From the IMG/VR virus record IMGVR_UViG_2880361019_000007: DNA of 46,314 nucleotides, one strand, 5' to 3'. The position numbers were made by a program. Positions 6,001 to 9,000 of this stretch are shown here, piece after piece. The DNA comes from a virus. Its lineage: Duplodnaviria; Heunggongvirae; Uroviricota; Caudoviricetes. Each line of letters starts with the position of its first letter. Position 1 is the first letter of the stretch.

Positions 6001-9000
6001 CATCTAATGTTCTTTCTACGTACTGGGATTATTTGCAGTTTGCATTATTTGAATCAGAAGAAATAATATTGTTTGGTTACTCTGGTCTCGATATTCACCT
6101 TAACCTGCTTATTCGACCTTACCTAACCTCTAAGCCTTTAAGAGTAATTGAGTGGAGCGGTGCTGGTGAACAAAACGCTCGTGAGATATATTGGAAAAAC
6201 CAGTTGAGACGGGAAGTTACTGTAATTAGGTTGGATAACATCACTGATTTTATTGATTGGTAGCGCAATGCGAAGTTAAAGAGGCAGCCTCATATTTATC
6301 AGAGCTGGTGTACGTCCAATACAGGAGGTTATCGTGCTGGTTCTCAAATGCGCGCTGGCTATTGCGGCTGTAGTGGCAATTTATTGTCTTGCTATTGTTC
6401 TTATGGATCGCCTTTCTGATTGATTTTATATTGGCGAGGTGACGGGAGTTAAGTAGAATTGCTGCGGGTGCTTGAGGCTATCTGCCTCAGGCATGAACAC
6501 CAAAAGGCAGATAGAGAAAAGCCCCAGTTAACATTACGCGTCCTGCAAGACGCTTAACATTAATCTGAGGCCATATCTATGCGACACATAGAGATTAGCC
6601 TCTTACGGACCAAAAGGTCAAGGAGAAGCAGGCTATGAAGCAGCAAAAGGCGATGTTAATCGCCCTGATCGTCATCTGTTTAACCGTCATAGTGACGGCA
6701 CTGGTAACGAGGAAAGACCTCTGCGAGGTACGAATCCGAACCGGCCAGACGGAGGTCGCTGTCTTCACAGCTTACGAACCTGAGGAGTAAGAGACCCGGC
6801 GGGGGAGTAATCTCCCGCCACCTCTGATGTGCCAGGCATCCTCAACGCACCCGCACTTAACCCGCTTCGGCGGGTTTTTGCATTAGTCTGGTTGACAAAA
6901 ATAGAAAAATGCGAAAATATGTGGTTTACGAATTCTAAAAAAAGCGAAACTTGAAATGAATGAAAATCAGTTAGCTCCTTGTTGGGAATTTCAACCTTAT
7001 CTTGCTGAAAACTATGTTCGCCACTTGTTGGCGGAGATCGCTAACGTACTTGAGCAGCTGTACTATCATAAGCACGCATTAGACAGCAACTGGTCTGAAG
7101 GTGTAAGGGCTTATGATTGGGTCAGAAATCATCTTATTCAAAATGAAGATGCAATTCCTGGCCTTGAGATGATTTCCAAGGGGTTGGACTATGTAGTTGC
7201 TTTAAATAAAGTTCCGCTACAATTTACCAAAGATTGCATTAATAACCCCAAAAAGAAACATCGTCTGCGTCGAAATAAAGTAGAGTATGAGCAGCTCTCA
7301 TTGTTTGGTGATGTTGAGGCTGAGCAAGATATTACATGGCGAGTCATAGCTGAGCCTTTTTTATCCGAAGAGGGCGATGGTGAATTAGAGTCCACACTGC
7401 CTCGTTGGGAGGTAGCTCTTGTTGGATTTAATACTTATGGTGCTCAGATTAGTATAGTTTCTCATCAATCTACAGCATCGATGCCGCTTATGCCTCTTGA
7501 TTATAACACACTCCCTGACGAAGCGGAGATTAATAAGGTGCCTCTTCGTCGGCGTACGAAGGATAAAGATTTGGATGTGAGCAGTGATGGAACATCAGGT
7601 GAATAACTTCACTGAGTATCGGGGTGATAAGCTCAAACTAGCGAGAATGGCTGTTGGGCTTTCTTGTGAAGAGTTAGCCGAAAAAATTGGCAAGACAAAG
7701 CAATTTGTTAGCAAACTGGAGAAGGGGTGCAGGCCATCGGAGCAATGTCTTGAGTTAATATCTTCAGCGCTTATGATTAAGTCCAGTTTTCTTTTTACTG
7801 AACGAAAATACGCTCTGGAAAGTGATGTCTGCCATTTTCGGAGTAAGAAGTCCAGGACTCAAACGCTGACTAATAGTGTATTGGCCAGGGCTGAGATTCT
7901 TAATATTATAATTTCTGCTGTTGAAGGTGAAATCGAATTTCCTGACGTTAACATACCGGAGCACCCAAGGGCTGAATTACTTACTCCGAATGATATTGAG
8001 CGAGTGGCAGAAGATTGTCGCCGTGCCTGGAATTTAGGTCTTGGCCCTATATCATCAATGGTTAAATTGGCGGAGAGTTTAGGGGTAATCGTTGCGCATG
8101 TTACGGGAGTCGATGATCGTGTTGATGCTTTTACTGTTCACAATAACAGGCCTGTTATCATCAGGAACAATGTTAAAAAAAGCATATGTAGATTTCGCTC
8201 TGATTTAGGTCATGAATTAGGGCATTTAGTAATGCATGAGGGCATAACGACAGGTGATAAACTTACGGAATCACAAGCCGATCACTTTTCGAGCGCCTTA
8301 TTAGTTCCCAGGTTATCTTTCATTAAAGAATTTCCACGAATACGAGGTAAGCAATTCGACTGGAATGCTCTGGTTGAATTTAAACTTAGATGGAAAATCA
8401 GCCTTAAAATGTGTATTTATCGAGCCAGCGCATTAGGCTTATTGACCCAGGAACAGGCAAGAACTGGCTATATGCATCTTAATTCCAGAGGGTATACGAG
8501 AGTTGAACCTGGTGATGAACTTTTGCGCCCTGAAGAACCCGGCATGCTGGCCGAGGCGATTGAAATGCTGGATGATGCAACCTGGCTAAGAATTCTTATG
8601 AAAACTGGCTTGAGCCAAGATTTAATTCGTGAGTTGTTCTCCATCAACAGACCTATTACAAATCCAAGAAATATTTTCCAGATTGTTTGAGTATACCCGC
8701 TTCGGCGGGTTTTTTGTTTTTATTTTCAACGTGTTTGAAGTTTTGGACGGTGCCAGAATAGAATCAAAAATACTTAAGTAGCGCGCAGGGAGAAGAGGGA
8801 TGGACCCCGAACAGGGGGAGTGCTATTTATCTGGAAGGATTCTGTTGATGAAAATCGAAGAATTACGTGAAATTTTTAGTGAAGATGGCCTCTATACTGT
8901 GCGCGTTGAGAATGGCGCTATTGTCAGCCACTGCCGTATTAAATGTTTACAGTCTCTACATAGGAAGAGTGGAGCTGCGTTAATTTACTTTGTGGATGGA

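Follow-up and report, generated by a model that had tools for sequence, protein, structure and literature searches.

The 46,314-nucleotide (nt) stretch recorded as IMGVR_UViG_2880361019_000007 (IMG/VR; Caudoviricetes), referred to here as the window, holds a lambdoid prophage in which two overlapping genes lie between two copies of a perfect 20-bp direct repeat (6860-8716). The locus raises three questions: (i) what the gene pair is, (ii) how it came to lie between the two copies, and (iii) what its products might do. The prophage genes run from a cI-like helix-turn-helix (HTH) gene and YdaT through DUF977, hokD/sok, DUF968 and RusA to Q; 3' of Q follow a methylase gene and then the lysis and structural genes. 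An earlier note, made from the sequence alone, had described the region as a terminator-bounded cargo module. Our analysis indicates that it is very probably a two-gene cassette of the RosmerTA type of toxin-antitoxin or abortive-infection systems, located in the nin region of an Escherichia coli lambdoid prophage.

Family assignment and conservation of the gene pair

Two genes on the same strand make up the cassette:

6956..7606, + strand: rmrT, putative toxin, 216 aa (PADLOC RmrT model, phrog_5786, AlphaFold model)
7587..8690, + strand: rmrA, putative antitoxin and autorepressor, 367 aa (PADLOC, Pfam, similarity to a verified RmrA)

Open reading frame (ORF) calls place the second gene at 7584-8690, with 368 aa from a GTG start, and RefSeq begins it at the ATG at 7587. 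The presence and overlap of the two genes therefore stand as first described, but the overlap, given in the earlier note as 23 nt, is 20 nt with the RefSeq start.

Both proteins match PADLOC models of the Rosmerta (RmrT/RmrA) type, in agreement with what the earlier note had proposed. RmrT matches PDLC03929 (E 4.6e-25, model positions 5-195 of 198) and RmrA matches PDLC03943 (E 5.6e-105, model positions 2-342 of 370); thirteen more RmrA models also match the second protein. The locus is a catalogued RosmerTA subtype, detectable by standard defence-finder models. RefSeq names the products "hypothetical protein" (RmrT) and "helix-turn-helix domain-containing protein" (RmrA), and a literature search by accession (WP_001004956, WP_000401168) found no paper.

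RmrA contains an XRE-type HTH (about nt 7632-7772; Pfam HTH_3, E 5.2e-07) and a Peptidase_M78 domain (about nt 8112-8429; E 6.5e-11). HELGH occupies aa 209-213 of the 367-aa protein (nt 8211-8225) and is followed by ESQADHFSSALLVP; an ExxAxxF motif is also present. These features confirm the predicted fusion of an XRE-type HTH to an HEXXH peptidase of the M78/COG2856-like kind. RmrA also matches phrog_2439 (transcriptional regulator) and the NCBIfam "spr1629 family repressor/antitoxin" model, the latter at E 7e-46, which is under the curated cut-off and gives no equivalog assignment.

The upstream protein, in which no recognisable motif had been seen, is a member of a family: in addition to the RmrT model it matches phrog_5786 (E 8e-85; function unknown in PHROGs) and carries a conserved QLSLF. 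Pfam and NCBIfam gave no match to it. An exhaustive HMMER search returned 69 RmrT relatives, most of about 200 aa, at 16-41% identity.

RosmerTA was defined by Millman et al. 2022 as a Zn-peptidase antitoxin with a toxin of unknown function, and includes a verified system from E. coli OLC-716 (sequences in their Table S2). Like that system, the cassette has the toxin gene upstream in a two-gene operon, and an antitoxin of about 370 aa that combines an XRE HTH with an M78 Zn-peptidase; the two RmrA proteins are 29% identical over 300 residues (E 2e-35). The toxins differ, being unrelated in sequence. Homology between them was considered and rejected (BLASTP E 7; hhalign probability 0.8%; PADLOC cluster 03929 here versus 03935). 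This mismatch is compatible with RosmerTA membership and does not exclude it, since RmrT is defined as the variable component.

The gene pair is conserved as a unit. Across loci in Enterobacterales, Pseudomonas and Alteromonas, an RmrT-family gene lies directly 5' of an HTH/M78 gene in each of the 15 distinct related loci that were inspected, with RmrT identity as low as 25%, and the two genes overlap or lie at most 14 nt apart in every case. That they move together, which the earlier note had raised as a point to check, is borne out by these neighbourhoods. The pair occurs in four E. coli lineages, in Xenorhabdus, Buttiauxella and Serratia (in Serratia after Q and before the holin gene), and in two remote metagenomic relatives. 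Four further loci were reached via RmrA homologues at 38-45% identity; loci found by this route include a P. oryzihabitans pair beside a cI/Cro region and a pair at a chromosomal site on a metagenome contig.

The other two of these four pairs, both distant copies, have different surroundings. In Pseudomonas aeruginosa (L016) the pair lies between transposases and beside a DUF4917 gene, and in Alteromonas macleodii (L017, 4053-6110) it adjoins a GAPS4 defence system. Both neighbourhoods are typical of defence islands.

Insertion behind the hokD terminator

The following features delimit the cassette:

6635..6790, + strand: hokD, left neighbour of the cassette (51-aa Hok ORF; hokD annotation in E. 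coli 042)
6860..6879, + strand: terminator copy 1, hokD's own intrinsic terminator (single copy in empty sites)
6889..6955, + strand: putative cassette promoter/operator (conserved in L005, L006, L009 and L012, in part in L007 and L008)
8695..8714, + strand: terminator copy 2, belonging to the cassette (same 20-mer at the end of the Buttiauxella cassette; related terminators at the ends of those in L005 and L006)

The 20-mer ACCCGCTTCGGCGGGTTTTT has exactly two copies in the window, and none of 100 shuffles gave a match. Both copies score as intrinsic terminators and fold into hairpins with a UUCG tetraloop (-15.1 and -10.9 kcal/mol), as expected of the perfect direct repeat doubling as a terminator that had been reported.

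We identified the cassette in 237 of 5,426 complete E. coli genomes (4.4%); 224 of the records matching it do so at 99% identity or more. Carriers include E. coli 042 and ABU 83972. Empty sites were sought with a synthetic junction, in which the left flank and one terminator copy are joined to the right flank. This query found one uninterrupted match in each of 2,786 genomes of E. coli. Three empty sites, namely the closest one (L002), Qin of K-12 (L003) and L004, have just one terminator, and after it comes exactly the sequence that lies beyond copy 2 in the window. Because these sites have one terminator and the same right flank, the cassette is an insertion of 1,835 bp, precise to the base, directly after the hokD terminator.

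Related cassettes reveal the origin of the two copies. The Buttiauxella cassette (76% protein identity) has no nearby hokD and no upstream terminator, and ends with the same 20-mer. An E. coli lineage at 80% identity occupies another prophage position; its cassette ends with AACCCGCTATATGCGGGTTTTTT, and a related terminator is present at the 3' end only. In a lineage at 94% identity, the downstream terminator copy has a TACG loop. From these three lineages it follows that the repeat consists of two terminators of the same sequence, the left one belonging to hokD and the right one to the cassette. The earlier wording, a cassette "inserted at or duplicating a terminator", holds for its first half on the strength of the empty sites and fails for its second, as the terminator is the cassette's own elsewhere.

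Target-site duplication by a transposon-type insertion is ruled out, given that the Buttiauxella cassette ends with the same 20-mer in the absence of an upstream copy. Neither a transposase nor terminal inverted repeats were found at the cassette (window ORFs, repeat search). The shared 20-mer is a plausible point of recombination for cassette entry.

Upstream of rmrT we identified a putative control region. TTGACA at 6892-6897 is retained in seven of seven cassette lineages, in keeping with the -35 element that had been placed at about 6893; its -10 is weak, and a promoter scanner for that reason passed over it. Two units in tandem, each about 33 nt long, GGTTGAC (6890)...GCGAAA (6911) and GGTTTAC (6923)...GCGAAA (6944), reach from the promoter to the rmrT start codon and are conserved across cassette lineages, and a partial palindrome, TTTACGAATTCTAAA, lies around 6930. 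Common to all lineages in this region is TGGTTGACAAAA...GCGAAAATAT...GGTTTACGAAT...AAAGCGAAACTTGAAATG. No obvious Shine-Dalgarno sequence precedes rmrT. Judged by these sequence features, 6889-6955 is likely the promoter together with the presumed binding site (operator) of the RmrA HTH.

With its own promoter/operator, two coupled genes and its own terminator, the cassette is a classical moron. Like other phage morons, it is placed between genes that are contiguous in related prophages, and there is no difference in kind; here, the terminator of the cassette and that of the target are the same 20-mer. The G+C content is low in the cassette (0.41-0.43 versus 0.55-0.58 in the DUF968 gene), as the earlier note had observed, but it stays low to about 9200 and is not a cassette-specific trait. 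The locus provides a base-pair-resolved example of defence cargo entering lambdoid prophages at terminators.

Cassette occurrences are in prophages and chromosomes; when 50,697 sequenced phages were searched with the cassette and RmrT by blastn and tblastn, no match was obtained. The cassette is also found, at 99.8% identity or more, on three E. coli plasmids of 175-238 kb listed as non-mobilizable (NZ_CP195449.1, CP088590.1 and NZ_AP026904.1). On NZ_CP195449.1 it begins right after the hokD region. The three may be phage-plasmids or plasmids with integrated prophage segments.

One of the four E. coli lineages carries a paralogous pair on the other side of hokD. In E. coli 2015C-3163 (L007, 2973-4731) this pair, which lacks its own terminator, lies 5' of hokD and has an RmrT that is 41% identical and keeps QLSLF. 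Cargo slots are therefore in use on either side of hokD.

A clamp-binding-like motif in the putative toxin

Potentially bearing on function, RmrT contains a short motif within the peptide VEYEQLSLFGDVE:

7292..7306, + strand: QLSLF, beta-sliding-clamp-binding-like motif in RmrT, aa 113-117 (conservation in homologues)

The clamp-binding motif (CBM) has the consensus QL[S/D]LF, and as a peptide it binds the E. coli sliding clamp DnaN with submicromolar affinity (PMC12309361). At the level of sequence, RmrT aa 113-117 equal this consensus. Composition-preserving shuffles of RmrT produce the motif in 53 of 200,000 cases, and in the window, whose six-frame ORF segments total 45,250 residues, no QL[SD]LF occurs other than that of RmrT.

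The motif is conserved at its site. Q, L, F and G do not vary in 13 close homologues; of 61 remote relatives, 48 retain the Q and 43 the L of the fourth position. At this site, 28 of the 61 match a strict CBM-like pattern, which has one match in the other 11,647 residues. Variants include QLSLPL, QLSLL, QASLL and xDDLF, and QLSLPL is identical to a peptide that binds the E. coli clamp tightly and was employed in PMC12309361. An indel-rich acidic stretch lies C-terminal to the motif in the family alignment.

A similar feature occurs in the verified toxin. In the family of OLC-716 RmrT, conserved QLKLDL, QLxFxF or NLDLF sequences align at one site (residues 143-148, alignment A2). The strict pattern is present there in 11 of 19 members and the loose pattern in 18 of 19; elsewhere, these patterns give 2 and 4 matches, respectively, in 4,078 residues.

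Published work on related systems gives these motifs a context. RipA/RipB of Streptococcus pneumoniae (Spr1630/Spr1629) belong to the Rosmer family by assignment; the toxicity of RipA is neutralised by RipB in trans, and ClpX is needed to hold RipA in check (PMC12795458). Mutations that suppress RipA lie in the hydrophobic cleft of DnaN, and with them the yeast two-hybrid interaction is lost. The authors point to SocB, a clamp-binding toxin of Caulobacter, and their paper makes no mention of a clamp-binding motif (PMC12795458). In E. coli E101, a prophage toxin-antitoxin module renders clpP essential (Rousset et al.). A transposon-sequencing (Tn-seq) preprint found clpX essential only in the three Pectobacteriaceae strains that carry RosmerTA. 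QLSLF offers a simple physical explanation that ties together the action of RipA on DnaN, the SocB precedent and the ClpX/ClpP essentiality in Rosmer carriers.

We infer that RmrT is the toxin and RmrA the antitoxin, and likewise infer the toxicity, clamp binding, operator and ClpX link in the following scheme. The RmrA HTH would repress the operon at the repeated GGTTkAC...GCGAAA boxes, and RmrA would render RmrT harmless, probably together with ClpX(P), as other Rosmer systems suggest. Cleavage of RmrT by RmrA, allowing ClpXP to degrade it, is one conceivable and purely speculative route. If control failed, QLSLF of RmrT would dock in the DnaN cleft and displace polymerases, and occupation of the clamp would arrest replication, both the host's and that of any phage relying on the host replisome. 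We rate the proposal that RmrT poisons DnaN through QLSLF at slightly short of even. If it is true, the E. coli cassette is predicted to make rmrA and clpX/clpP conditionally essential.

Several points weigh against the clamp proposal. AlphaFold (AF2) places residues 108-115 in a helix, at moderate confidence, and the spacing of E110, Q113 and L116 could therefore mark one face of a structural helix and not an exposed linear motif. The best-conserved residue (56 of 61 relatives) is E110, a position not included in the canonical CBM, and the strict CBM is kept in only about half of the relatives. RmrT toxins are heterogeneous: that of Gordonia phage Kita depolarises membranes (PMC10440598). We found no published toxicity or phage assay on this RmrT subtype in the literature searched.

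The helix, the conservation of E110 and the Kita precedent all favour a reading in which the module is RosmerTA, QLSLF is merely structural, and the toxin acts elsewhere, on the membrane, translation or another target. We regard this as rather doubtful. It is opposed by the independent CBM-like motif in the second, unrelated RmrT family, by RipA as a DnaN precedent, and by RmrT itself, in which neither a transmembrane segment nor a hydrophobic stretch is predicted from the sequence.

The AF2 model of RmrT, built from the alignment of 69 relatives (predicted local distance difference test, pLDDT, 85.5; predicted template modelling score, pTM, 0.76), begins with a pair of long helices, continues with a sheet of three strands, short helices at 101-115 and three further strands, and ends in a disordered acidic/basic tail. 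A Foldseek search of the PDB with this model gave no match. The polar residues D43, R51, E110, R129 and E133 are conserved. RmrT might instead be a nuclease with a restriction-endonuclease-like (PD-(D/E)XK) fold, free or tethered to the clamp, that cuts DNA, with the motif at most recruiting it to replication forks. We consider this unlikely. The D...(D/E)xK signature was looked for in strands beta-2 and beta-3 and not found: D78 lacks conservation, and the sequence of beta-3 is VPx(R/Q)F.

A further alternative reverses the roles of the two proteins, or makes them purely regulatory. The HTH-M78 protein would then be the harmful effector, or a damage-responsive anti-repressor like ImmA or IrrE, with the 216-aa protein as its inhibitor or substrate, and the pair would control prophage genes instead of forming a toxin-antitoxin system. 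There is precedent, and it too counts against our assignment of toxin and antitoxin: in PD-lambda-2 the Xre-peptidase component alone is toxic and the upstream protein rescues (PMC9519451). In addition, the M78 proteases ImmA, IrrE and CapP are stress-activated regulators, and PADLOC capP does match (E 1.6e-14), although capP and capH are weak on the cassette proteins, far below the RmrA match. Against role reversal, a RosmerTA rmrA deletion was not obtainable (Millman et al.), ripB is deletable only when ripA is missing (PMC12795458), and rmrA is essential in three Pectobacteriaceae (Tn-seq preprint). The cassette also occurs outside prophages, in a defence island and at chromosomal sites. 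Beside it there is no separate repressor substrate, and no CBASS (cyclic-oligonucleotide-based anti-phage signalling system), integrative and conjugative element (ICE) or other regulated operon adjoins it (ORF calls, E. coli 042 annotation). We consider the reversed or regulatory arrangement highly improbable.

Returning to the clamp as target, the motifs in the two toxin families raise a broader possibility, which we hold more tentatively than the proposal for this RmrT: two sequence-unrelated Rosmerta toxin families may have come to carry a clamp-binding motif independently, and RosmerTA in general may poison DnaN in the manner of pneumococcal RipA. RmrA and ClpXP would then restrain a clamp poison until infection. 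RosmerTA is validated as a family both of anti-phage and of toxin-antitoxin systems. If the broader reading is true, a widespread defence family would have a common mechanism, and a prophage-borne clamp poison would have been identified in E. coli. The occurrence of a clamp-binding pentapeptide at a family-conserved site makes the mechanism testable.

Neighbouring cargo and related systems

Next to the cassette, and not part of it, hokD belongs to a toxin-antitoxin locus of its own:

6466..6637, + strand: region of the sok antisense RNA, from the type I toxin-antitoxin pair hokD/sok (match to Rfam RF01794 at 107.5 bits, E 9e-25)

Just 5' of hokD, at 4456-6263, lies a candidate SIR2-like/DUF4917 defence gene (PADLOC PDC-S21, E 1.2e-5; DUF4917, E 1.6e-4) that is apparently interrupted by IS1. 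The IS1 copy, at 5126-5893, is bounded by terminal inverted repeats of 23 nt and encodes InsB at 5375-5878. Faint matches to SIR2_2 and Aga_SIR2 come from the C-terminal fragment (5880-6263). This split gene would be a second, inactivated cargo gene.

Farther downstream, 3' of Q, a DNA methyltransferase is present as two ORFs (12284-12625 and 12755-13333), which cover positions 14-133 and 166-333 of one PADLOC MTase_II model. E. coli 042 has a single 1,050-nt methyltransferase gene at the corresponding position, and the split version (12284-13333) is probably a frameshifted pseudogene.

Several known systems resemble the cassette in part. ImmA/ImmR, IrrE/DdrO and CapP/CapH share the HEXXH chemistry of M78 peptidases and an XRE HTH partner; in these systems protease and repressor are separate proteins controlling an element or operon, whereas in RmrA they are fused and a toxin accompanies them. 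An E. coli mobile-element module with a small protein and an Xre-peptidase fusion is also seen in PD-lambda-2 (Vassallo et al. 2022, PMC9519451), but that system comprises three genes, its first component is HigB-like, and its peptidase component is toxic. The E101 module of Rousset et al. is also borne on a mobile element, and its partner protein is called a Zn-peptidase antitoxin by Millman et al.; its protein accessions are other than those of RmrT and RmrA here.

At the level of the proposed target, two further systems are comparable. SocA, the antitoxin of SocAB in Caulobacter crescentus, is a ClpXP adaptor, whereas RmrA is an HTH-metallopeptidase. The likeness is on the toxin side of this type VI toxin-antitoxin system, where replication is stopped at the beta-clamp cleft and control is exerted via ClpXP (PMC12795458). 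RipAB shares the Rosmer family with the cassette, and its antitoxin model, spr1629, matches RmrA below cut-off as described above. The target would also be the same: the hydrophobic cleft of DnaN was shown for RipA and is predicted here from QLSLF. RipAB differs in being chromosomal and competence-linked, whereas this cassette is prophage-borne. Beyond what is known of the family, the present locus adds the anatomy of an insertion at base-pair resolution and a clamp-motif lead to the action of the toxin.

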